A stretch of 63,310 nt of DNA, filler included, from Collodictyon triciliatum (GCA_043381765.1; 15 parts of 15 records of this genome joined end to end with filler, not necessarily neighbours in it); one strand, 5' to 3'. Positions 234 through 62,517 are shown, numbered from the whole stretch's first letter. Notes: generated by a model not told the origin, from the letters alone. Program-made: numbers and translations.

Positions 234-3200
234 AGTCAATGAGTACAATGTTGTTGCTGTGATCCAGTGCATCCTACCGTACCATGAGACAGAATACTTC
301 TCGCGCATGGTGCAGATTCTCCACGTGCGGTATGTATGCACAGTTATACTGATATCTTTGGAATGGTACTTGAGCTGAATCCCGTTATACTTTTCATAGG
401 GATACGTGCTGGGCGTTTCTCAGTCGCTTCTCATCCTCGAAAAATGGTATGGATCGAGCTACCCTGGTATCGCACTGCTTAATTGATAAATCGGTCCTCA
501 ACACAGTGTTGAATGTGGTAAGCAAAATATTGTGGATTCATTTCTGCTCTGGCATTGTGCCTTCATTGAAATTAGCATATACATATCCTACGCTTTAAAC
601 AGACTAATTCTGCATGATACACTACTAACACCATTATATTTTTACACTGCAAAAATCTTCTGTATAGGCTACACAGTCAACGTCTCTTCCTTTTCTTCCG
701 TCTCCTTCAGTTTCGTTTACTGTTGCCACCCTTGGAAGTTTACTTGAGGAGTCCAAGGCCATCAAGGAAGACACCGTGATTTTAATCCTCGGTCACTTTG
801 AGCAGTGGTGTAGTACATCGAAAGATGAAAAGCTCCAGGTCAATATATCTATAATTTGAGGGTGGTTTTATTAAACGAAAAAAAAACGCAAAAAGCATTT
901 TTATAACAATTGAACCGTGGGGAGTGTAGCTTTAGACAGTCAATTGGATAGTCTAATCATCATCAAAACATTTTACATTCCTGTACTTCGCCTTTATCAA
1001 AAATCACATCCTAGATTGCATCTTATGCCACGGCAACAGTTCTTTCTGTTCGGATTCCCTTATCCAAGCAGCTCACCTCAGCAATGCTGTCCTCTGTGTT
1101 GAATAAGAAGGCTGCTCTCCGCTCAAGGGAAGCATTACTTTGTGCCATTCAGATAGTCAAGTATCAGAAGGTCACCCAGCTGAGCGATGCACTGATCGAC
1201 CAAATATATGCCATCCCGTTAGTCATGTCTCTTATTCCCTATTTAAAATTCATTTTTTACAATTCAAAGTCCCTCTCATTTTCCCATCCTCTACACCTTG
1301 CAAGTTTACTCTATGCTCTACTTGTGCAGATATATTTTACCTAGATACCAAAATCTATGTACATAAAATGGTCTTCATTGTCTCCCTCTTTCTCCTCTCT
1401 GAAATTCCTATCATAAATCGCAAAAATAGGTCGCTCGCTGATGTTCTTTCAGACATTACCTCGACATACGTTGCAGAGGAGTTTCTCCAAGTTCTTGCTC
1501 TCAACACAATCAACTCACCGTTTGTTTTCTTTTTCACATCACTAATTTCAGCATCTTTCCGGCATGCAAATCGATAACTGACCACCTACTTGCATTCTGC
1601 TAGAAACGCAAAAGAATCAGGGATTCAGACACTTAAGGAACTCCTCCACCGCCTTCCATTTAAATCCTCATCCAAGTCAATTGCAAATGCAGCTGCCATC
1701 AGGATTATCGATAAAAACTCTGACAGTCCCATCACATCAGGTGAGAATTATAAAAATGAACTTTACTACTATCAAAATTGACATTACATACATATCTGCA
1801 TGGCATACTCTTCTCTGCAAAATATTTTCTGATACTTGGAAAATACAAGGTTGTAAAGAGATCTTGGAAGTCATCCAAAACCTGTATCCAGCAGAGTTTG
1901 ATTCAATCGTCAACGAGGCACTCCAGGTTTTCCTCTGGTGCAAATCGCACATATATACATTCTTTGCAATACCTTCTGAAACTGTGACATTATATCCCCT
2001 TCATTGATCGATGTGAAATCCTTTTCTACTGAAAACATAGATTTTGTCCTTGCATTTTAACTAATTTTTAATTCCACTTACTGCTAACAATATTATCACT
2101 CTAACAATCCATGCTAATTACGACACCTCAGAAAAGGTCTCTGGGAGGGTCTGATGCAAACGTGCTTGCTGACTTCTTATCACGCCTTGTTTTGGGTACT
2201 TGTCAGCATACACTATCGAATCATATAGTGAATGAAACATATTTTATACCAATTTGTGTAGATTGCGAGCACAGGACCTTCCAAAGGAGAATACATTCTA
2301 ATTCCTTTAAACTTGCCTGAAATCCAAATAGACACCGGGTTTTCAACTTTTGTTGATTCTAGCACGATATTCTCTGCGTTAGAGCATAAGTTTGCAAGCA
2401 TTCGTCGACAGGCGTCTGAGGCACTTCTGTCCCTACCTGCAAATGCACCGGTGATTGAATATAATTTCTCATGCGCAACAAACAACCCATCATTTATAAG
2501 ATTCAAAATATTCATGCCAATAATATTGCTCAGTTTCAATCGTTCGGAGATAAAATCGTCGCTCGACTCAGCGATGATGACCCGATGGTTGTTGCCAATG
2601 TGCTTGCTTTCCCTGGTCTTTCATCATGCGCATCAGCAGACGCCATTTTTAACTCTATCGCCACGATACTTCGATCTGGTTAGCATATTTTTTCTTGTCT
2701 AAAAATTCCTTTACTCTTCCTATTTTCTATATTTTCAAGTCGGGCGTAGCCATTTTCAATTATCTGTACTGGTTAATTCCACAATTAATACCACGTACTT
2801 TGCCTAAAGTTGAGAAGTTTCGGATTCATCCATTTGCGCTGAATGCACTGAGTACGTGGTTCGTGTCGAGTTATCCGGATTACACTGAGCAAATCGCAAA
2901 ACTTGCCTTCAAATTCATTCTTGGAAATGCGGATGTAAGTGTTTGCAAAAAGCAGAGTCCTTATACTTTTTTTCTCTTAATCCTTTTATACACCTTATTG
3001 AATAGCAGGATATGAAAACGCACAGATGGATATTTATATAAACAAACATAAAATATTATTAATTCCGTGATAGTGTTACCGCCGCACTCTTCAAGCTGTT
3101 TACTTCTTTCTGAGTAATCGGAATATCTCATTCATATCTGGATTTCAAGATGTAATGAATTCTAGAAATTACTCCATGCTATGCTATTTACTGAATTGGA

Positions 3201-12655: not shown

Positions 12656-13399
12656 GGCCTGTGCGTAGGGTGCGACGAATCAAGAGTCTTTTCATGTGGT
12701 TGTGGTTTGTTTTCATTTGCGTGTGTTTTAGTGCAGGACAACTTTGTTCCTTGGTTGTGTTTTTTGAGCGAGTGTCGTGGAATCCCTTTCCTTGATCCTG
12801 GCTTCGTATCCTATATTGGCACATTCGCGGTATGCTGGGGAAGTTGGTCAACGAGAGTGGATTCTCTTGTGTCTAGAATTATCAGAAATCCGAAAAAGGA
12901 ATCCGAGCGGATTTGGTAACTGCCTCTGGCAATATTTTATTATGCAGTGCATTTAATGCAATTGTGCATCAATACTATGCAAATAAATATATCTTGTTAA
13001 GGTAAAATAAAGTGATTATGTAAATTCCGCATTTGTAAAGTGACCACAGGCGAACATTCAAAATTCTGTCTCCATTCTGTCGCCTGTCAAAAGCGCCCTT
13101 TCCAGCAAGAAACACAAAGCAGCACGCCACAAAACCCACAGCCGGATCCGTTCTATAAATAAAACCGGACAACCACCAGTTCACGTACTTAAATGCCAAG
13201 AGGAAGCCTGCATCCCATATCCACCAGCCACACATGCAGAACCACCCGGCCAAACATGTGGACAAAAGCGCACCTATCCCTTGCTGCGTTTCCCACACAC
13301 CTTCACACACACACCCACACACCCACAACGACACTGACATCCACATTCATTCTTACACCCTTACTCAATCCCGCGTACACTCACGACTCCCAGGAGAGG

Positions 13400-15478
13400 A
13401 TGAAGACTGCGCTGCACGAAGCAACAAGCCGCCTTCTGTCGTGGCTTCCTGGCTGGCGCAACACAAATACAAATACAAACACAAACACAAACACAAACAC
13501 AAAGACAAACGCACCGCCAAATACCGGCACGCACAAGACAGCCATTGCCGCATCGCGCATCCGCAAGAGCCACGGGGTGCACGCCTCGCAGCTGGCCCAC
13601 CCGCACGGCCCGCTCTCGACGGCCGCCACCGAAGCTGCCCGCCCACCGCGCCTTCGCCGCAGAGACCGCGTGCGCCGCTTCCTGACGCGCCCGTCCGACT
13701 GGCTCTCGGTCGCCCGCGCCCTGGCCAACAAGCGCCCTCTCGCCCCGCTCGGGCCCAATGGCTGGCGCGTGAGTCTCCTTCTCTTCTCCTCTCTTCTCTT
13801 TTCGCTTCTCCTCTGCCAACCGACAGCGCAAATCGCGACACCGGCCCTGACAGCCGCCTGCGCAAACAGATCCAGGCCCTCAAGCGCCTCCCAACGCGCA
13901 GCCTGTCCCGCGCCTGGGGCTGGTTCCACAGCAGGCCGCTCCCCTTCTGGGCCCGCGCCCCGGTCTACCGTCTCTGGAGTCTGCTCTTCCGCTGCAACCT
14001 CGACGAGATCGCCGCCCCCCGCCTGGAGGACTATCCCAGCCTCGCCGACTTCTTCACACGCTCCCTCAAGCCCGGTGTCCGCCCCTTGGCCTCCGCCCCG
14101 CTGGTCTGTCCCGTGCTTCTCTCCCGCCTGTCCCTTGTTCTCCCTGCGCTTGTCGGCCAGCTCCTTTTGCTCCGGATTCATCTGCTCGAGATTCCGTCCA
14201 GGAGTGGGAAGACACCGCCGTTTCACTTTCTCTTTCTCTTTCTCTTTCTCTTTCTCTTTCTCTTCCTCTACTCTAAAGACATAACCAACCAGGTCAGCCC
14301 TGTGGATGGCCGCGTTCTGTACTTTGGCGAGGTGGCCGACGACATGCTGGAGCAGGTCAAGGGTGTGACTTATCCACTCGGCGAGTTTCTCGGTGAGATT
14401 CCGCGCCAGACGACGCGAATCAACCCTGCAAACAAGCTCTACCACTGTATCATTTATCTTGCACCGGGCGACTACCATCGTGTCCATTCCCCGGCCAACT
14501 GGTCTATCCAGCGTGCTAGACACTTCACTGGTCGGTCGCTTTTCTTTTCTTTTCATTTCTTTTCCTTTCCTTTTTTTTTTAATTTTCATTTTTATATTGA
14601 AGACATACCACACACTATCCATTCTTTCACCAAACTCATCCACATGATACATTGAGGATTCCGTGACCCGGGATCTCTATTTTTTATAATGAATTTTCAT
14701 TCCTTTTATCTTTTTTTTTTATTTAAGAATCCAAATGTTTGAAGCATTTGAACACTTTCGTCAACAGCGCCTGTTTATTAATCATCAGATTTTTTTTTCA
14801 TTTCCTCCTCTTCTCTCGCGTCCCTCAGGCGAGCTTTTTTCTGTGGCCCCGCACATGCTCCGAGTGGTGAAGAGCCTCTTTGTGCTGAACGAGCGTGTAG
14901 CGCTATGTGGTTCGTGGCCGCATGGATACTTCTCCATGACCGCCGTGGGCGCCTTCAACGTTGGCTCCATCTCGGTCAAGTTCGACCCGGTGAGTGTCAG
15001 CACGTCGACAATATATGAAAAGAAAAGAAACGAACAAGCTGATTTCCTAATCCACATCTTGTCCCCCATCGAATGGGGGATAGCCCCTCTCGAAAAGAAA
15101 AACTTTTCTCACACCGACGAGTTTTATTGATATTGAAATGTCTTTAATATATATGACGATTCAATATCATGTATTGTCCACTGTTTGCCAAAACTCACTA
15201 TCCCGAAATCATGTTATGTATTGTGCCATCCCTCACTCACATACTCGCCATCTCGCACAACCATGCAGGAGATTGTGACGAACCACTCATCACACTCAAA
15301 GAGCGATGTCTACCTTCGCACATATAACAACCAAGGCGTTTCCAAAGGCGACGAGCTGGCCACTTTCAATCTGGGCTCCACCGTCGTGTTGGTCTTTGAA
15401 GCGCCAGCCATCAAGTTCTGTGTGGAAGCCGGAACACACATCCGCATGGGAGAACCACTTGGCGTTTTCTCCCACTGA
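13400..15478 (+). CDS. PISD: Phosphatidylserine decarboxylase (mitochondrial type)
   Basis: Spliced motifs LPTRSLSRAWG, YPSLADFFTRSLKPGVRP, VSPVDGRV, QVKGVTY, IIYLAPGDYHRVHSP, LFVLNERV and VGAFNVGSI, plus the autocleavage motif FNLGSTVVLVFEAP. Basic N-terminal leader. Confidence 0.95.
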
Positions 15479-35990: not shown

Positions 35991-37387
35991 CTGGGCTCGC
36001 AGTTCTGAGACATTAATTATTTGAGGGAGCTTAGAAGAATATAGGAAATAAAGACCACATCAAGCAAAAGTAGCCATTCAGCTGATAAATTGTTTTCTGA
36101 GAGATGGGTAATTTCGGAAGTTAGTTCATTTTCCTGTTTATGTTTTCGCTTGTTTGTTTCTTTGTTTGTTTTTTGTTTGTTTGTTTTTTGTTTGTTTGTT
36201 TTTTGTTTGTTTGTTTTTTGTTTGTTTGTTTTTTGTTTGTTTGTTTTTTGTTTGTTTGTNNNNNNNNNNNNNNNNNNNNNNNNNNNNNNNNNNNNNNNNN
36301 NNNNNNNNNNNNNNNNNNNNNNNNNNNNNNNNNNNNNNNNNNNNNNNNNNNNNNNNNNNNNNNNNNNNNNNNNNNNNNNNNNNNNNNNNNNNNNNNNNNN
36401 NNNNNNNNNNNNNNNNNNNNNNNNNNNNNNNNNNNNNNNNNNNNNNNNNNNNNNNNNNNNNNNNNNNNNNNNNNNNNNNNNNNNNNNNNNNNNNNNNNNN
36501 NNNNNNNNNNNNNNNNNNNNNNNNNNNNNNNNNNNNNNNNNNNNNNNNNNNNNNNNNNNNNNNNNNNNNNNNNNNNNNNNNNNNNNNNNNNNNNNNNNNN
36601 NNNNNNNNNNNNNNNNNNNNNNNNNNNNNNNNNNNNNNNNNNNNNNNNNNNNNNNNNNNNNNNNNNNNNNNNNNNNNNTTGTTTGTTTGTTTGTTTGTTT
36701 TTTTGTTTGTTTGTTTGTTTGTTTGTTTGTTTGTTTGTTTGTTTGTTTGTTTGTTTGTTTGTTTGTTTGTTTGTTTGTTTGTTTGTTTGTTTGAAATAGG
36801 AAATAGATATATATATGTACAAAAAAAATCATGAATCCAGAGTTCTCTTAATTGCACTCCAACCTGCTGCGTATTGCCGCTGCTTGCGTTGTTTCTCCTC
36901 CGCATTCGACTGATCACCCGCGTACATTTCCCTACCTTGAGTGTCAAACTCTGTAGACTGGGTGAATTGACTATCTTTGTTCCTTTTTTTATTTGGTTTT
37001 TCTTCTTTTTTTTTTTTTCTTTTTTATTCTACTCATTTTATTTTACAGAATACAACAATGGCAACACACTCGTCTTCAACGCATGGTCTTATAACAGTCC
37101 CCATACAGCCCACCACAGGATGCAACGAGTTCGACCAAGTAATCATCAGGCCTCACAGGAAGTTCACAGCTTTTGGCTCTCCTCTGATATTAAGTAACGT
37201 CGCGTTTGATTCTTCTTCGTTTAGTGAGCTCGCGATCGTTATATGACTCGTTGGACTTTTTGTTTAATTGTATCGTTAAGAAAAAAATGAATTTTCCAGA
37301 TAAGGATTCCGTTGTCTTTATAGGGTATGACTGGGCGTGCTACAGTTTTGGTATCGTTGAGCGGAGTTTGTTGCGGATTGGGTTTTT

Positions 37388-40370
37388 TTATTTGCTGAAC
37401 TGCGTGAGAAGAGCATCCAGCTTCTGATTCAGTTGTCCCATGGCCAGGTTGGAGCTCTGCGATGATGCGTTGATGAGAAACCCGTCGTGAGTTGAGTATT
37501 AGAGATTACACGTACCAGCTCTGGATTTACATCGAAACCCATCAAGCACACAGAATAAGGCGAGGATGATGTCGCCTTTGTTTGGGACAGATACCAGCGC
37601 AATGTAAAGGTGTCTTGGGATGAAAAGAATGAGAATTCAATATTACCGCGACAGTCAAGTGGCCCGGTGCCGTTTGGAGGAGCTGGCGCTGCTTGGCAAG
37701 TTCCTTGCGGGCTTTGGAAAGATCGGAATCGTCCCCAGTACCGTAAGAGATTTCACCGCGGTGGTCAAAGTAGTAGGGAGTTTCAAGTTGAGGCACCTAA
37801 GATAGGATAGTGATGTTATCTGATATGTTCTCTTTTACCGAGGACGTAAACTCTGGTCACATCCTCCTTATGATGGAGCAATATAGAATATCATGCAACT
37901 CTGGTGCAGGAAGAACCAGTACCTCCCAGAATTCCCTGTCTTGGTAAAAGTCGGTTGCAGGTTCGAACTTCTTGATGAAAGCACCAGTGATGAGTCCAGA
38001 TGTGATGGCAATCCCAAGGGTAATGAAGAGAAACCCGATTTGAACACCAGCCTGTGAAGTTTGAGAGGGAATAGTATTTCAATTCAAGGAATTATGGAAA
38101 GTCACTGAGATTCTTTCCATAAAAAAAAAAGCCTCATTGCAATCAAAACGAGAGCACAGTGGAGATAGATATTTAAACGGGCCCTGATAAAATACCGCGA
38201 TGATGTATTACCTGCTCCTGCATGGTTCTGTCGTAGTTGATGACACCTGGGAAAACACTGTAAAGGGTGTCACCTTGATAGAACTCGAGCTTGGCAAATC
38301 CAGCAATGACAGCGCTGAGAGCCCCTGAAATCACTCCGGGCATACCGTGCAAGTTATGGACACCACATGTGTCATGGAGTCTGAGATACTTCTCCAAGAA
38401 CCCTTGGACGTAGACAAATCCGAAGACACTGATTGAGCCTGCAGCACAACCAATGACAAGGCTTCCGAACGGATACGGATTCATGTTTGCGACAGAGCCA
38501 ATTGCAACACCCCCAGCAAGCGTGGCATTCTGAACATCGACCATGTGGAAGCGCTCATCACCGCGCAGGAAGCGAGAGGTAATGAAGGCAGTAACGCAGC
38601 TTCCAGACAGGGAGATGACGGTATTAATGATGGCGCGTTGCTCGGAATCAGGAGTACCAGGGGCACTGTTGAAGCTTGGCCAGAACATCCACAGGAAAAC
38701 AGTTCCGATCATCGAGAAAAGATCTGACCTGTTGGATGCACATGTCGATTAAGAAAATACATCCGCAATACACGAGACGGCAGAGTAAATAAGTATGGCC
38801 ACATGAAGTAACATGACCAAATATGAAAATATATATCAGCAATTAACGAGTGCTACGTTATTCAGTATTTGTATTTGTAACATATAACAAATGTGCACCT
38901 GTAATCGGCAGAATTGTCTGAGCGACCACGAGCCTTAGAGGAAGTCAGCATAGCAGAGGCAGACAGTCCAAAGTATGCTCCAAATGTATGAATCACCATG
39001 GAACCACCAATATCGGCAACGTTGAGGAAGTTGCAGATGGTTTCGTTAAGGGAATAGAAGATGACTTCAAAGAATGCGACGAGCAAAAGTTGAGTTGGGC
39101 TCACCTATTATCGATGTGAAATAATTAGATGACAAGAAAAATGAAACAGGATACATCCAACACAAAAAAAATAAAATATTATCTATGGAAAAATAAAGAG
39201 AGAGAGAGAAAAAAGCTATTTGTGTCAAATAATAATAGAATCTTGATTAAAGACTTAAATCACTTGTGATGGTTGTTGTTTTGAAAGTAGAGGGAGAGTG
39301 GATGGTGGACAAATATAAATGAGAAATAAAATACAATCACAATATCATTTAACTTGAAAATAACTTTGAGAAAAAAAAGGGGATTTTACAACAAAATCTC
39401 AGAAGAGAAATAAGGGGAGTTACCTTTCCTAGGAGCGCGCCATATGTGATAAGGACGGAGCCAGCAGCAAAGTCGGCCAGGACAAACTTGTAGATATCGA
39501 TCTCGAGGGCCTCGTCCAGCTTGTCATGGAACAGATGCTCCCAGAAGCCGCCGCAGAGGATGTACCACTGGATGACAAACGCGCCGATGAGGAAATTGAA
39601 CCCAACTGAGGAGTAGCCGTACTTTCGCAGGAAAGTCATGAGAAAGCCGAAGCCGATAAAGATCATGACATGGACGTCCTGGAACTGCGGGTATCCGTTA
39701 TCGATTTGGCCATCGCCGTCCTCAGTGTAAAGGTCGTCCGAGTAGCGGACAAACAGTCCAAAGAACAGGATAAAGAGAGCCTGGAAGCCACCGAAGATGG
39801 GGACAAACCAGCTCTCTCGGTGCGTCTCGGCAAGAACTCCACCGTACTCCTCAAGCTTCTCGCGGACTTGGTCCTGACCCACACGGGCGGCGTGGCGAAT
39901 GGCGTCTGTCAACGGGCTGCCTCCAAAGCGGTCCTGAGCGTGGACATCGGCTCCGCGTGAAAGCAGAAACTCCACCACTTCCAAGTGGCCCTCGCTCGAG
40001 GCAAGATGCAGTGGTGTGCGGCTGTCGTAATCAGCGCAGTTGACCGAGACTCCAACGCGCACAAGGCGCTGAACGTGGGGAAGATCTCCCGCGCCAGCTA
40101 TGTTAATATGGTTTGTCTTTGGTTATGTTTTGATTTCTTTAATGTTTTCTTTATTTTTGTTTCGTTTTTTTTGTTTCGTTTTTTTTGTTTCGTTTTTTTT
40201 GTTTCGTTTTTTTGTTTCGTTTTTTGTTTCGTTTTTTGTTTCGTTTTTTTGTTTGTTTGTGAACAAACCTGCAGCAATCAAGTCAGTCTCAAGTTCATTA
40301 GGATTTCCGGAGCGGGCGCCAGAGAGAGCGAGGATATCGACAACACCGTCATTTTTGACACGGAGAGCAT
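37388..40370 (-). CDS. Ankyrin repeat - Rh (Rhesus-type ammonium/gas channel) fusion protein, 5' truncated
   Basis: ANK repeats (DYDSRTPLHLASSEGHLEVVEFLL..GADV...DRFGGSPL) run in one exon into Rh motifs YPQFQDVHVMIFIGFGFLMTFLRKYG. Later exons give DIGGSMVIHTFGAYFGL, IGTVFLWMFWPSFNS, QNATLAGGVAIG and LHDTCGVHNLHGMPG. The last exon (..LNQKLDALLTQFSK*) is tentative. Confidence 0.93.
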
Positions 40371-41340: not shown

Positions 41341-42270
41341 GAGGCTGTGTCTTTCCATGGAGGAGTATTTTCCCGACGAGATACCAGTACCAGTTTTCAT
41401 AGCGACCGCAACATCAGAAACTCCGATTCATATACCGATATATACCCAGAAAACGTATCTGCATCCGACTATGACGTAATCCGTTTTTTCGTTATTGCTG
41501 ATAGCTATTTTTAGAGTATATCATGTTATTCCTTAAAATATATTATGGGGATATTGGAAAATCTCATGAGGTGTGGAATCATGCTTCGTAAACTAATAAC
41601 CAAACCAATTTATAGCGAAAAAAACACATTCTCTTGAAAGGAAGCGATATCCATCCCGTCTCACAAATGACGTCTTATTATTTTGACTCAAGCGCGACTG
41701 ATCTGGAAAAGACTGTGCAAGAAAATGAGGACAGGCGAGGCCATACCACTGAAGTTCCTCAAAGAGTCGATGGAGTGACAGTTCATCACCAATCTCCCGA
41801 AAGACACCATCACCAGCCAGTAATCCTAATTTAGTGTTCATAGAACTCGAAGCACTCAAAATTAATCTGAGAGCATAATGGATAAAAATAAAGGAGAATA
41901 GTATTCTTTTATACATTAAAATAACCTTGATATATTTCTTATCGACGCCCAATAGCCAACACAAAAGACCTCAGGAAAACAAGCAGATCTAACTACGCAG
42001 GCGCTGGACTCCTTTTCCATGCACAGTCAAACTACGCCAAAGGATATACGATATATGTACCTTGTGCAACAGCATCGACTTCGCATCCGGCAAGAAATAT
42101 CACACGGCCTTGTTCACTCTCTTGTCCAAGCCATGAATTTGGACCAGACAGAGTCCGAAATCCAGTGCGCAACACTCATCCGGGAGATCGAGCTACTGGA
42201 GGAATCCCGCCTCAACGAACTACTTTCAGCACCTGGCGTGACTCTTGAATCGCAGCTGGACGAAAACTGA
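41341..42270 (+). CDS. Hypothetical protein (3' exons)
   Basis: AG/GT-bounded open segments 41641-41819 and 41956-42270, ending ..LIREIELLEESRLNELL..QLDEN*. No recognisable domain. Confidence 0.4.
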
Positions 42271-42674
42271 TTATCTTTTTGGGCCAGCGAATAATATTAG
42301 GGCGATACCAAAAAAAAAAAAAAAAATATGGCGCAATGCTTAGGCGCACCCTATTTTCATATCCAACATACTACATGTCTAATTAGCCTCGTCGACTCAC
42401 GAGGCGTCTGTTGTTGACCGAACTAATATAACGCATCTATATTTTTTTCTTATTGAATTGTCGAAAATCAACCGATGGCAATGGCGACTATGGAAAATAA
42501 ACTTCTTTTAAAAAAATCTTTGTTAACTTTGCAAACTTGAAAAAAACAAAACTAATTTAGCCTGCACTGTCACACAAAAAGGAACAGAAAAATGTGAGTT
42601 CCGAAGGAATAACAGATGCAATAGCGGGAAGCCAAAACAAAGGGGATTCAGCGGTCGCGCCAGGTGTTCAAAAA

Positions 42675-42757
42675 CCTGCTCTACCAACTGAGCTACTGGG
42701 CACAAACAATGCGCACCCAGGTGAGAATCGAACACACGACCAGGAGGTTAAAAGCCT
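42675..42757 (-). tRNA. Circularly permuted tRNA-Lys(UUU)-like gene (3' part 42757-42713, spacer 42712-42703, 5' part 42702-42675)
   Basis: Minus strand: AGG CTTTTAA CCTCC TGGTC GTGTG TTCGATT CTCAC CTGGGTG C (positions 29-73), then a 10 nt spacer, then TGCCCAG TA GCTC AGTTGGTA GAGC A GG (positions 1-28). Joined, these give a full cloverleaf with a perfect GGAGG/CCTCC anticodon stem. Confidence 0.85.
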
Positions 42758-43037
42758 AACGAAGTAACACCCAACTAGCGCATCAACCCCACAAAACAAG
42801 ATAATTGACAGTTTATAACATCAAACTTTCCATACAAACAAGGTATGGACTCGCCAAAATGACGACCTTAATGGCTGTTCGGCATCTCTTACTCTCATTA
42901 TTTTTTAAACTTCCATTTTGTTAAACTATTTAATTATTTTTTTTTTCAGGGCGATGAGGCGCTTGCTTCCCGTGTTGGATGTGAGAAAAGGAGTGAATGA
43001 GGGCTGCTCAGCAATGTACTTTTTTTTTCACAAGTGC

Positions 43038-44320
43038 TTATTTCTTTCCTTTTGGTTTCCCTTTCTTCTTTTCCTTCTTTGCGGCATTTTTTATGCAAAC
43101 CGCATCAATTTGAGCAAGAATGGCAGACCCTTCAACTCCGGCGTGATTGCCAATAGCATGGACCGATGTGATTGAGGGGCATCCTCTGTAAAGAAATAGG
43201 TGTGGAGGCTTTAGTTTATCTTCTTGCGAAAGAAATGTGCAGATATATATTCCCCCTGGTGTGAGCAAGAAAAGGGAGACATATGAATGAACTAAAGTAG
43301 GAAGTAACGTGACAGTGGAGAGGTTTTATAATTCCTTTACTTCACTGCCTCGGCCAAAATATTAAGACCTTCGAGCCCAATGTGATTACACTCAATATTC
43401 AGAGAAACCAAGGTTCTAGATTACAGAGTAGGCCAATTAAAATTTTATACAACCATTCACAAACACCAAAAGACAAGATTAAATAGCCAAATGTCGATAG
43501 ACATGATATCTTACTTGCTCATTTTGATGGCCTCTCCAAGGTGCCTCATCCCCTCTACTGTGATACTGTTTTCTCCCAGATTGACATGGGTCATTTCCCG
43601 GACCTTGATTAGGCGGGACACCATTTCGGCTCCTTCATCTCCGATCTTGTTACAGGCAAGATTTAGTGCGGCAAAATGCTCCTTCGTCTTGAGCTTCTCG
43701 GCTATCAGACGCAGACCAATAGCTGTCAAGGTATTATGGCCTAATTGGAGACTTCGAATCGAGCAGGAAATGAATTTGGTAGTTCAGACAGAAAGCCAGC
43801 CAGTCAATCGAAAAGCAGTTTAGCGAGTTATCTCCATTAGGGTAAAGCGGTTCAGGAATAGATATAATTGGGGAAGGGAAACAAAAGAAAAAACAAAGAG
43901 AATAATAATAATAACAATAATAATCATAATATTAAATATATGAGTGGGGGTCAGACCTGACCAGCGCTGTATTACGGTCGAGGAGGTCCGACAATGTATG
44001 AGCATCAAGGTCGCTAAAGCCAGTGCCACTCAAATTGATTTCAGTCACTGTGAGAGCGTCCGAGGTTCTGAGTACGTTTGTGATCTGCGGTCCAAACATA
44101 AAAGCAGCAGACAGTTTTCAGCGGTGGTTATGTGAACAGTTGGACCAAGTGAAGAGGCGCACGTGTTCGGCACGGACATGTAGATAAAAAGAAAGAGAAA
44201 AGAGAGTGAAAATAAGCGAAGAGAAGAGCAGGGAAAAAGTACCATTTGGAGGGGACTGGCAGGTGCTTTGATGATGTCCTCTGCAGTAAGGATCGGGCGT
44301 GATCCGCTGGAGCCGGCCAT
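43038..44320 (-). CDS. RI-like leucine-rich repeat protein
   Basis: Repeats INLSGTGFSD, LQLGHNTLTAIG, LNLACNKIGDEGA, VNLGENSITVEGM and LNIECNHIGLEGL, with a lysine-rich C-terminus ..KKKGKPKGKK*. Confidence 0.85.
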
Positions 44321-60254: not shown

Positions 60255-60593
60255 TGTGATGATGTGCCTTGTGAGCATCATTGCTCACAAATATTCTCTA
60301 ATAAGGTGGGTTAAAAGAGAAAAAAAGAGAGAAAAAAAGAGAGAAAAAAAGAGAGAAAAAAAGAGAGAAAAAAAGAGAGAAAAAAAGAGAGAAAAAAAGA
60401 GAGAAAAAAAGNNNNNNNNNNNNNNNNNNNNNNNNNNNNNNNNNNNNNNNNNNNNTTAATTAATTAANNNNNNNNNNNNNNNNNNNNNNNNNNNNNNNNN
60501 NNNNNNNNNNNAAAGATGGTAGTGCCCGGGAAGGGGGGGGGATTTAGTCTAGAGAGGTGTTTGTTTTTTTGGGGGGGGGGGGGGCTGAAATAC

Positions 60594-62517
60594 CTTTCGG
60601 CAGTCTTCAGTTAGACTAAAGCGGATAAAGGCCTCCTTATCTCCCTTGTTGAAGTCGACGTATCTGACATCCCCGAATTCAAGGAAGGCATCCTGGATAC
60701 AATAAAATGGGAGAAGTAAAAGCATATCACTAGGTGAGAATGTGCTTCTGCAAGGAGCCTCCTTAGGCCTATCTTTACTCAAAACTAGCCAAATCTGGTG
60801 TGGTGTATTTTGTACCTTGATGATTTCGCGGGTCGTGTCTTCTCCCAGGTTGCTGAGGTGCAGGAGGACTCCGGTGGGATGAGACTTCTGAACATGATGA
60901 TGAGAGAGATATGGGTGAGTAAACTAGAACAGAGGCAAGAGGCTGCGGGTGAAGAGGGTGAGTGCTTGGTGAACAAAACAAAAAAAAATGTTTCGGATAT
61001 AGCAATGGCGATTTTCTTTTGTCTTCAAAAAGTGAGTGATGCCTTCTCCACTTCGTCGTCGTCTTCCTCGGCTTTGCTGGAACCACCTTGCTTTTGCGGG
61101 CCTTGTTTGGACTTGCGGCGCTCCTTCTTTTCGACAGCCTTCTCAGCAAAGTAGTCCTCTCTGTGGATCAAACAATAAATAATACTCATGTTCCAACTTC
61201 AAGGTCGCGCTGACTTGTGTTTGCCAAATGCAACATAGATATTTCAATATTATTTATCCTTTACTAAACGATGGAATTTTTCGTTTGGATGTTAAAAAGT
61301 AACAAAAAAAATAAGGACTTGGCTTTAAGAACAAGGGTGGTTTCTTCGTATTTGACGTCTGAAGTGTTCAAACACTTCTCACGTCCTTCTTCTGTGACAA
61401 ACTCGACGAAGAGAGAGTCCTACAATTTTAGGGTTTTATTTTTAGGAGTAACTCAGTTTTGCGAGTTTATTTATTTTATTTATTTATTTTTTGCAGCCCT
61501 GTTTTATACTTAATTTGAGTCTTCTGTAATTACTTCAAAACAGTGTATAAGGGTAATTCGGTATATTCATGAAGTATGGTAAGTGAAATGAAGTTTCAGT
61601 TGAAAAAGAAAAAGAAAAAGGACAAATTTGAACCTTCAGCTCCTCCGACTGATACATCTTGCGAAGACGAATGGCAGCAACTTCACCAAACTGAGAAAAG
61701 AACTGTTGGGCAGCCTCTATGGTGATGGTCTTGGGAAGCCCTTTCTGAGGTAGGTAAAACATATTGTTTTGAGCGAAGTGAGTCGTATCAATATAAAAGA
61801 ATCTTAGATTCAAAGACGCTCCCTTCGGGTTCAAGAGCAGGGAATATTGAAAAGGAATTTCTTACAGCATAGACCGATCTCTTAAGACCGGTGTCGACTT
61901 CCGGCAGAGGGTTGACTCTGCGGACATGAGTGCCGGCTTCGTTCACTTCAAGCTCCTTGCTGTACTTCAGGACGTTTGCTGGATTGCGAGCCGGAACGTA
62001 TTAAGCACAAAATTGTAGAGGGCACAAAGGATGCGAGTTGTATTGGCAGCTTCTGCGCAACGCAAAGTACCTTAAAATGAGGGGGAAACATTGAAGGAGC
62101 GCATACCAATAAGGGCGACATCCTCCGTCATGGCTTTCACCTTGTTGAAGCGCGCAAAGTCGGCGATTTCAACGTCTTATGAGATTTTGTTTGGATAGTT
62201 AGAACAATAAAGAAAGAACCGCACTCCAGCGGCAGGGGGAAGGTGGCGTTCTTTGCGCTAAGAGAAATAGCAAGCGCACAAAAGTCAAGCAAGGGCTTTG
62301 GAGTCCAGAGTTATAGTATTGGAGGGGCCAACAAAAAGGGTGGGGAAGAGAAGGACTTACAGCCTTCAGGATGTGCCTCGGCCTTGGAGCGGAGATAACG
62401 GTCGCGTCGAAAGTTGCTGTCTGAAAAGTAAAACTCGATTTGTTTTAGGACCTTGTATTCCACGGTGCCTTGTCCATAGTCTTCGGGGTTCACTTTCTTG
62501 GTTGCAGATGCGCCCAT
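60594..62517 (-). CDS. SSB: La protein (La motif, RRM1, RRM2), 3' truncated
   Basis: La motif KVLKQIEFYFSDSNFRRDRYL..FARFNKVK. RRM1 RSVYA/KGLP..FFSQFGEV..SLFVEF. Second RRM TTREIIK/DAFLEFGDVRYVDFNKGDKEAFIRF. Confidence 0.92.

Follow-up and report, generated by a model that had tools for sequence, protein, structure and literature searches.

The locus described here lies on the minus strand of the window, by which we mean the whole stretch of DNA that was analysed (63,310 nt). The window is eukaryotic nuclear DNA with a G+C content of about 37% and carries genes for a phosphatidylserine decarboxylase (at least three exons), an ankyrin/ammonium-transporter protein, a bZIP protein and a La-type RRM protein. 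For a 727-aa open reading frame of the window the sole match is 36% identical and stems from a protist transcriptome set. Parts of the window match two small organism-labelled runs, with small shares in freshwater/lake metatranscriptomes and metagenomes.

Read along the minus strand, the locus consists of a TATAAA box, a 33-nt leader, the 3' half of a tRNA-Lys(UUU) (tRNA positions 29-73), 10 intervening nucleotides, the 5' half of the same tRNA (positions 1-28) and a run of five Ts. The TATAAA box (42812-42817) is located 27 nt before the first G of the leader and 60 nt before A29 and is a putative promoter, by analogy with the TATA-like elements found upstream of the permuted tRNA genes of Cyanidioschyzon merolae; the hexamer occurs 88 times per 126,620 strand positions of the window. 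The leader (42758-42790) is G/U-rich and ends with ACTTCGTT before A29 (42757). Its length of 33 nt applies if transcription starts near GGGG, a 5' end that we infer from the distance to the TATA box. The 3' half (42713-42757) begins inside the anticodon arm with three of the five 5'-strand stem bases (29-31), continues with the loop CUUUUAA and the 3' strand of the stem (39-43), and then contains the variable loop, the T arm, the 3' strand of the acceptor stem and C73. The intervening sequence GCATTGTTTG (42703-42712) closes the acceptor stem, and CCA is not encoded. The 5' half (42675-42702) provides the 5' strand of the acceptor stem, the D arm, A26, G27 and G28.

The first base after G28 opens the T5 run (42670-42674), a candidate Pol III terminator or U-rich linker. 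It is followed by a trailer segment complementary to the leader (42642-42669), made up of G, AACACCUGGC, ..CGCU and AAUCCCC, for which ViennaRNA gives pair probabilities of 0.36-0.61. Directly 3' of the last pair of this stem lies TTTGTTTT (42634-42641), a second candidate terminator whose longest run is T4. In the window, runs of five or more Ts begin at 621 of the 126,620 strand positions, or about 1 in 200, and runs of four or more at about 1 in 93. The 3' half precedes the 5' half on the same strand, the two are separated by a short sequence at the acceptor stem, and as sequence a TATA-like element is present upstream and a T stretch downstream, with nothing longer than T3 within the intervening sequence. 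In its architecture, the locus corresponds to a circularly permuted tRNA-Lys(UUU) gene with its junction at 28/29 and with no bulge-helix-bulge (BHB) motif.

When the halves were rejoined in silico, ARAGORN called tRNA-Lys(ttt) in 12 of 12 boundary variants. The call persisted at 120% of the default thresholds of the program, a level at which 8 of 10 control tRNAs from three bacterial loci (L001-L003, described below) were still found. The cloverleaf is complete, and each of the 20 pairs examined is either standard or G-U. The conserved bases U8, A14, G15 with C48, G18-G19, A21, U33 and A37 are kept, as are U54-U55-C56, A58 and G53-C61 in the T arm. Oddities of the molecule are U1.G72, G2.U71, a U52.U62 mismatch and C73; the pair 52-62 lies outside the list of 20 and is marked as a non-standard U.U in the ARAGORN drawing. 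The halves join at 28/29 without gap or overlap. This position is fixed because G is required at 27, 28, 30 and 31 for pairing with CCUCC, and because the trailer would supply U at 29 and the leader U at 28.

In the native gene order, ARAGORN finds no tRNA in the whole 63-kb window, and Rfam yields no match in it at gathering thresholds. Further tRNA pieces were not found in the window either, and the D-arm pattern RGCNNAGTNGGNAGNGC occurs in it a single time, at this locus. The possibility that the flanks are the decayed outer halves of a tandem duplication was rejected, as local alignment performed no better than with shuffled sequences (p = 0.32 and 0.58; cross-controls, p = 0.35 and 0.95). 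An intact core between flanks that bear no significant likeness to a tRNA argues for selection on the core.

Permuted tRNA genes were first described in C. merolae in 2007 (reviewed in PMC3978253). According to the available portions of this review, the known genes have 1-74 nt of intervening sequence and lack an encoded CCA, with a TATA-like element before them and a T stretch after them. Their precursors undergo cleavage at the junction and ligation of the ends, which yields a circular RNA; this circle is subsequently opened at the acceptor loop, probably through RNase P and tRNase Z (PMC3978253, section 6). Their flanks can form a strict or relaxed BHB, so that the tRNA splicing endonuclease accounts for their maturation (PMC3978253). 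In the literature searched, as far as its text was accessible, permuted tRNA genes are on record from a few algae, two chlorarachniophyte nucleomorphs and one archaeon, with later reports on Auxenochlorella (PMC12633428) and the nucleomorph of the chlorarachniophyte A. amoebiformis (PMC4494063). The 34 permuted genes tabulated in 2014 have junctions at 15/16, 20/21, 37/38, 50/51 and 59/60, and none at 28/29 (PMC3978253). A junction inside the anticodon stem is likewise not reported in the accessible text of PMC12633428, PMC4494063 and a 2026 review (PMC13578239), nor in that of the PlantRNA 2.0 preprint and the O. tauri genome preprint. What is new relative to the 2014 table is therefore the junction position 28/29 and the absence of a BHB; the permuted tRNA architecture itself is known.

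As far as the available descriptions go, the C. merolae genes resemble the present one in having the 3' half upstream of the 5' half, no CCA, a TATA-like element and a downstream T stretch. Their intervening sequences measure 7-74 nt, compared with 10 nt here, and in both cases close the acceptor stem. A tRNA-Lys(UUU) is even found among the 11 permuted genes of C. merolae, but its junction is at 59/60, whereas here it lies at 28/29 in the anticodon stem. The junctions of this alga are at 20/21, 37/38, 50/51 and 59/60 with flanks predicted to form a strict or relaxed BHB, while none forms here. Circular intermediates have been shown for C. merolae. The green algae Ostreococcus, Micromonas and Auxenochlorella and the chlorarachniophyte nucleomorphs have permuted genes in which the halves are arranged as here, and a circular route is presumed for them too. 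In Ostreococcus, Micromonas and the B. natans nucleomorph the tabulated junction is 37/38 in all genes but one, with an hBH motif that suits the eukaryotic endonuclease, and none of the tabulated genes is a tRNA-Lys or is joined within a stem (PMC3978253). The 27/28 'no H' intron listed for the permuted tRNA-Ser(TGA) of O. lucimarinus adjoins the position used here and offers a precedent for processing at the top of the anticodon stem in which a central helix is lacking (PMC3978253, Table 1).

The initial annotation had stated that the junction does not conform to a textbook 3-4-3 BHB, and this holds: the canonical register at 28/29 pairs at only two of four positions. In a BHB, a central helix of 4 bp lies 5' of each cut, a geometry that agrees with the known anticodon-intron pair, in which position 32 is matched with the intron base located three nucleotides upstream of the 3' splice site. 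The corresponding helix would here need A23-A26 paired with UUCG of the leader, and two of these four pairs form. We enumerated 75 registers with central helices of 3, 4 or 5 bp and with each cut preceded by 0 to 4 unpaired bases. A full helix of 4 or 5 bp was found in 0 of 50 registers, that is, neither a strict nor a relaxed BHB is present, and matches with a 3-bp helix numbered only four among the 75. Two 3-nt bulges around a 4-bp helix, as in BHB-type introns or split-intron halves, are absent. Relative to the GUGUU/AACAC helix, the TTGG bulge and the U-rich linker sit on the 5' side of their respective strands, an arrangement that mirrors a BHB. At best, the junction falls into the published 'no H' class, as this is defined in the figure legend available to us (PMC3978253, Figure 2).

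A long bulged stem between leader and trailer had also been proposed in the initial annotation, and its letters and coordinates are correct for the minus strand. GTGTT (42770-42766) faces AACAC (42668-42664) and adjoins a TTGG bulge (42774-42771), GCGCTAG (42781-42775) faces CTGGCGC (42663-42657) with one U-G pair, and GGGG (42790-42787) faces CCCC (42645-42642), after which TTTGTTTT follows (42641-42634). The sequence also contains the T5 run at 42674-42670, ACTTCGTT before A29, TTTTTG after G28 (42675), and an acceptor helix of 9 bp, CTGGGTGCG/TGTGCCCAG, closed by CATTGTT. ViennaRNA selects a register that differs from the one first drawn: GUUGGGUGUU (42775-42766) pairs with AACACCUGGC (42668-42659) over 10 continuous bp, and beyond this core GCG/CGC, one A-U pair and GGGGUU/AAUCCC are formed. 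The resulting leader-trailer duplex is a bulged helix of about 20 bp with an energy of -25.5 kcal/mol. With the cloverleaf imposed, the whole unit reaches -39.6 kcal/mol, as against -34.5 kcal/mol in the earlier register. The unconstrained optimum of the unit, at -48.7 kcal/mol, does not contain the cloverleaf; the 10-bp core of the helix is kept in the centroid structure. As a recurring leader motif, GTTACTTCG gave 11 matches at no more than one mismatch, where 9.6 were expected, and the exact match occurs only here.

The extent to which such pairing exceeds chance depended on the test. With the flank limits picked by the initial annotation, -25.5 kcal/mol was reached by 0.5% of 3414 window-derived segment pairs of the same geometry; among 2000 dinucleotide shuffles, 3% attained it. 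With neutral flanks of 40 nt, the duplex energy was reached by 1.6% of 2037 controls and 1.8% of 396 GC-matched controls, and with flanks of 60 nt by 8.5% of 2048 and 10.3% of 429, respectively. In the structural ensemble, 12.75 leader-trailer pairs are expected, compared with 9.08 +/- 6.46 in shuffled flanks, and 33% of 300 shuffles reach 12.75. Shuffled flanks thus pair comparably, which indicates that a G/U-rich leader and a C/A-rich trailer pair easily regardless of the order of their letters. The fold of the entire 157-nt unit (42790-42634) was likewise no better than that of shuffles (z = -0.66; 46 of 200 at least as stable). The proposed stem consequently stands as a set of pairs that are possible on paper, whereas an excess over chance is not established by the control tests.

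Long complementary leaders and trailers are a feature of split tRNA genes in Nanoarchaeum equitans and other archaea, where they unite the two pieces before cutting and ligation. This is the role proposed for the stem here. The archaeal pieces are encoded by separate genes and their helix abuts a BHB that is cut by the archaeal endonuclease, whereas the present locus would give one transcript and has no BHB. In the available accounts of known permuted pre-tRNAs, the helix termed h' resembles the proposed leader-trailer processing stem.

Homologues were sought in metagenomes with a degenerate pattern of T arm, acceptor stem and D arm. Three loci matched and none is homologous: L002 and L003 are tandem bacterial tRNAs, and L001 is a bacterial-type tRNA-like element before a tRNA array. 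The same pattern had 0 matches in viral contigs. Contigs of four out of 21 sequencing runs were compared with the interval 42300-43100 (801 nt). Runs X1 and X3 gave none, and X2 gave one contig that matches 43025-43100, outside the unit. From run X5, seven contigs (eight pieces) were obtained, six of which match the A/T-rich stretches 42911-42947 and 43038-43077. One X5 contig has the D arm directly before the anticodon arm and shows 5 differences; it represents the ordinary tRNA-Lys of another organism.

The order of T arm, loop-closed acceptor-like stem and D arm, together with paired 5' and 3' ends, is also that of the bacterial Y RNA YrlA (Rfam RF02553), and the initial annotation had considered a stable Y-RNA-like tRNA mimic. 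YrlA is indeed the sole Rfam family matched at the locus and also provides the highest-scoring match of the window, with 36.4 bits (E = 1.1e-5 for 2.5 kb and 2.7e-4 for the window) against a gathering score of 69 bits. The match is confined to the tRNA-like module: just positions 24-84 of the 114 positions of the model align, a part that any permuted tRNA would match, whereas the Ro60-binding stem of the model is unaligned and no conserved bulged stem was recovered. In the interval 41500-44000, neither the Y_RNA family nor, for the flanks, any small self-cleaving ribozyme family of Rfam matched at E <= 10. TROVE/Ro60 or RtcB domains were not detected in the 98 stop-to-stop open reading frames of at least 110 aa in the 63-kb window. 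In contrast to the YrlA model, the locus lies in a eukaryotic nuclear context and carries a complete anticodon arm with UUU and halves that fit exactly, which a mimic would not need. Taken together, these searches gave the mimic no positive support.

The other reading offered in the initial annotation, in which a permuted precursor of the intron-exon type has a junction that is not a BHB, fits the locus, which holds a complete permuted tRNA-Lys(UUU) gene, a TATA box and T runs and no BHB. We consider it probable that this is a functional permuted tRNA gene. A live gene is favoured by the exact fit of the halves, by a core that scores like a genuine tRNA between flanks devoid of any tRNA trace, and by the location of TATAAA and the T run, each rare by chance, at places that resemble those of a promoter and a terminator. 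Counting against it are two features of the tRNA, namely wobble pairing at the acceptor end and the U.U pair within the T stem.

With regard to how such a gene would be expressed, we tentatively favour a version in which the flanking helix is in use, at somewhat less than an even chance. Pol III would read past T5 and stop at TTTGTTTT. By analogy with Cyanidioschyzon and the green algae, the precursor would fold into the cloverleaf, with G27-G28 paired to C42-C43 and A29-G31 to C39-U41. Once these anticodon-stem pairs form, the ends to be joined would abut like a nick inside the anticodon stem. The leader-trailer helix may act as a processing stem that clamps these ends together; this is the least certain step, and it requires read-through of T5. 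As in the known systems, leader and trailer would then be removed and the ends ligated into a circle, the acceptor loop of which RNase P and tRNase Z would presumably open before CCA is added. We favour use of the helix because the leader is unusually long, because the stem starts near the transcription start predicted from the TATA box and finishes exactly at TTTGTTTT, and because 0.5-1.8% of natural controls with flanks of 33-41 nt reach its duplex energy. Ordinary tRNA leaders are usually shorter than about 30 nt.

Since T5 begins at the first base after G28, the transcript may also end before the trailer. In that case Pol III would stop at T5, the trailer would not be part of the RNA and the stem would be chance complementarity. 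It would then be the tRNA body that determines where the ends lie. Conceivably, trimming would remove the oligo-U tail and the leader up to the borders of the anticodon stem, and an RNA ligase would seal the nick, giving a circle independently of a BHB. Such an early stop is somewhat unlikely in our estimation, although several observations speak for it. With just 621 starts of T>=5 among 126,620 positions, one falls exactly at +1 after the 5' half, and this position is the feature of the locus least likely to be chance. T5 is also the better terminator of the two: TTTGTTTT does not exceed T4, a length equal to that of the run in the anticodon loop that Pol III has to pass. Moreover, there is no BHB that would require the trailer, and the helix is matched by 33% of shuffled flanks in the ensemble comparison and by 8.5-10% of controls with flanks of 60 nt. 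On the other hand, the number of Ts that stops Pol III varies among species, and termination at T5 leaves a partnerless leader of 30 nt unexplained. The helix, moreover, ends exactly at TTTGTTTT, and with short flanks its duplex energy is attained by 0.5-1.8% of natural controls. In the known permuted pre-tRNAs, as presented in the accessible sections of the review, the strict or relaxed BHB also uses both leader and trailer (PMC3978253, sections 4, 6 and 8).

Both versions of a live gene bear on a more far-reaching proposition, namely that a lineage from which permuted tRNAs have not been recorded makes its tRNA-Lys(UUU) from this gene and joins the ends at 28/29, within the anticodon stem, in the absence of a BHB and independently of the tRNA splicing endonuclease as it is known. 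These ends would be set either by the leader-trailer clamp helix or by a Pol III stop exactly at the junction, after which they would be trimmed and the nick sealed. We regard this proposition as possible, yet on balance doubtful.

A non-functional relic is quite unlikely. The locus might then be a repeat-length piece left from a former tandem array of tRNA-Lys genes, or have arisen by reverse transcription of a circular or dimeric pre-tRNA, and the pairing of its flanks would be due to chance. In line with such an origin, there is one locus, no contig of the four sequencing runs compared covers the unit as such, and the tRNA has two wobble pairs at the acceptor end and a U.U mismatch in the T stem; the lack of a BHB and the weak statistics of the helix point the same way. 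Reverse transcription and duplication-loss are both among the published scenarios for the origin of permuted genes in the portion of the review available (PMC3978253, section 10). A relic is difficult to reconcile with the exact fit of the halves at 28/29 and with a core that retains all conserved tertiary bases and matches bona fide tRNAs in ARAGORN score while the flanks show no tRNA trace. Furthermore, inert DNA would hardly be expected to combine TATAAA at a promoter-like distance with a T5 run at the exact end.

It is highly improbable, finally, that the locus encodes a tRNA-like RNA that is never rejoined, be it a Ro60-binding Y-RNA-like molecule or a two-piece RNA held by the flank helix after opening of the acceptor loop: the shared module order and YrlA match, the absence of a recognisable splice signal, and the pairing ends and U-ended RNA, as for Pol III transcripts, that the long form would have are opposed by the full anticodon arm, the unmatched Ro60-binding stem and the statistical weakness of the leader-trailer stem.

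If the locus is a relic, or if the stem arose by chance, the finding is an ordinary one. If it is a working gene, the taxonomic range of permuted tRNA genes widens and 28/29 becomes the sixth junction position. Standard tRNA finders would then overlook an essential tRNA, as ARAGORN and the Rfam gathering thresholds, which gave nothing here, exemplify. A working gene would also raise the question of which enzymes cut and seal a junction without a BHB, and if joining indeed proceeds independently of the splicing endonuclease as known, the locus would represent a new maturation route for a disrupted tRNA gene.

At the acceptor end of the circularly permuted tRNA-Lys(UUU) gene, which lies on the minus strand, the acceptor helix extends past the U1.G72 pair by G(-1):C73 and then U(-2).G74 (42704-42712, minus strand), and the base that precedes U1 is a G. 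This end is unusual both for RNase P and for a tRNA-Lys, and hence the true mature 5' end may lie elsewhere than at the position given by the 7-bp rule.

At the other end of the 5' half, C25-A26-G27-G28 together with U(+1), the first base of the T5 run, could pair with ACCUG (42665-42661) and enclose the loop UUUUGAAC. As judged from the sequence, this candidate hairpin (42678-42661, minus strand) would leave the cut site at G28 buried; its formation would compete both with the D stem and with pairing of the trailer stretch AACAC to the leader.

An open reading frame with a La-type RNA-binding motif was found at 60552-60923 on the minus strand (Pfam RRM_3, E = 2.4e-10). The same frame gave a Pfam xRRM match (E = 6.3e-5) slightly below the gathering score of 23.7 bits, which no single stretch reached. 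The frame probably represents an exon of a gene for La or a LARP7-like protein. La binds Pol III transcripts at their U-rich 3' ends. The frame and the tRNA unit are 18 kb apart within the window, and we take their proximity as coincidence.

In the metagenome contig L001, which was matched by the degenerate pattern scan, the complementary sequences AGGACG and CGTCCT flank a module of T arm, loop-closed acceptor stem and D arm (464-620, minus strand), and a six-gene tRNA array begins immediately downstream. This element looks like a YrlA-type tRNA-like RNA of bacterial or phage origin; Rfam made no call for it at the gathering score.

Elsewhere in the window, ankyrin repeats and ammonium-transporter segments occupy neighboring open reading frames of the same strand (38176-40122, minus strand), which suggests an ammonium transporter carrying an ankyrin domain at its N terminus. 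Several frames are open on both strands at 36020-37028, and none of these frames of 219-296 amino acids had a Pfam match; the region is probably of low complexity or repetitive. A phosphatidylserine decarboxylase domain is spread across three consecutive frames at 13159-15475 on the plus strand, which match the profile at positions 22-102, 98-149 and 145-197. Introns therefore divide this gene, and this supports a eukaryotic nuclear origin.
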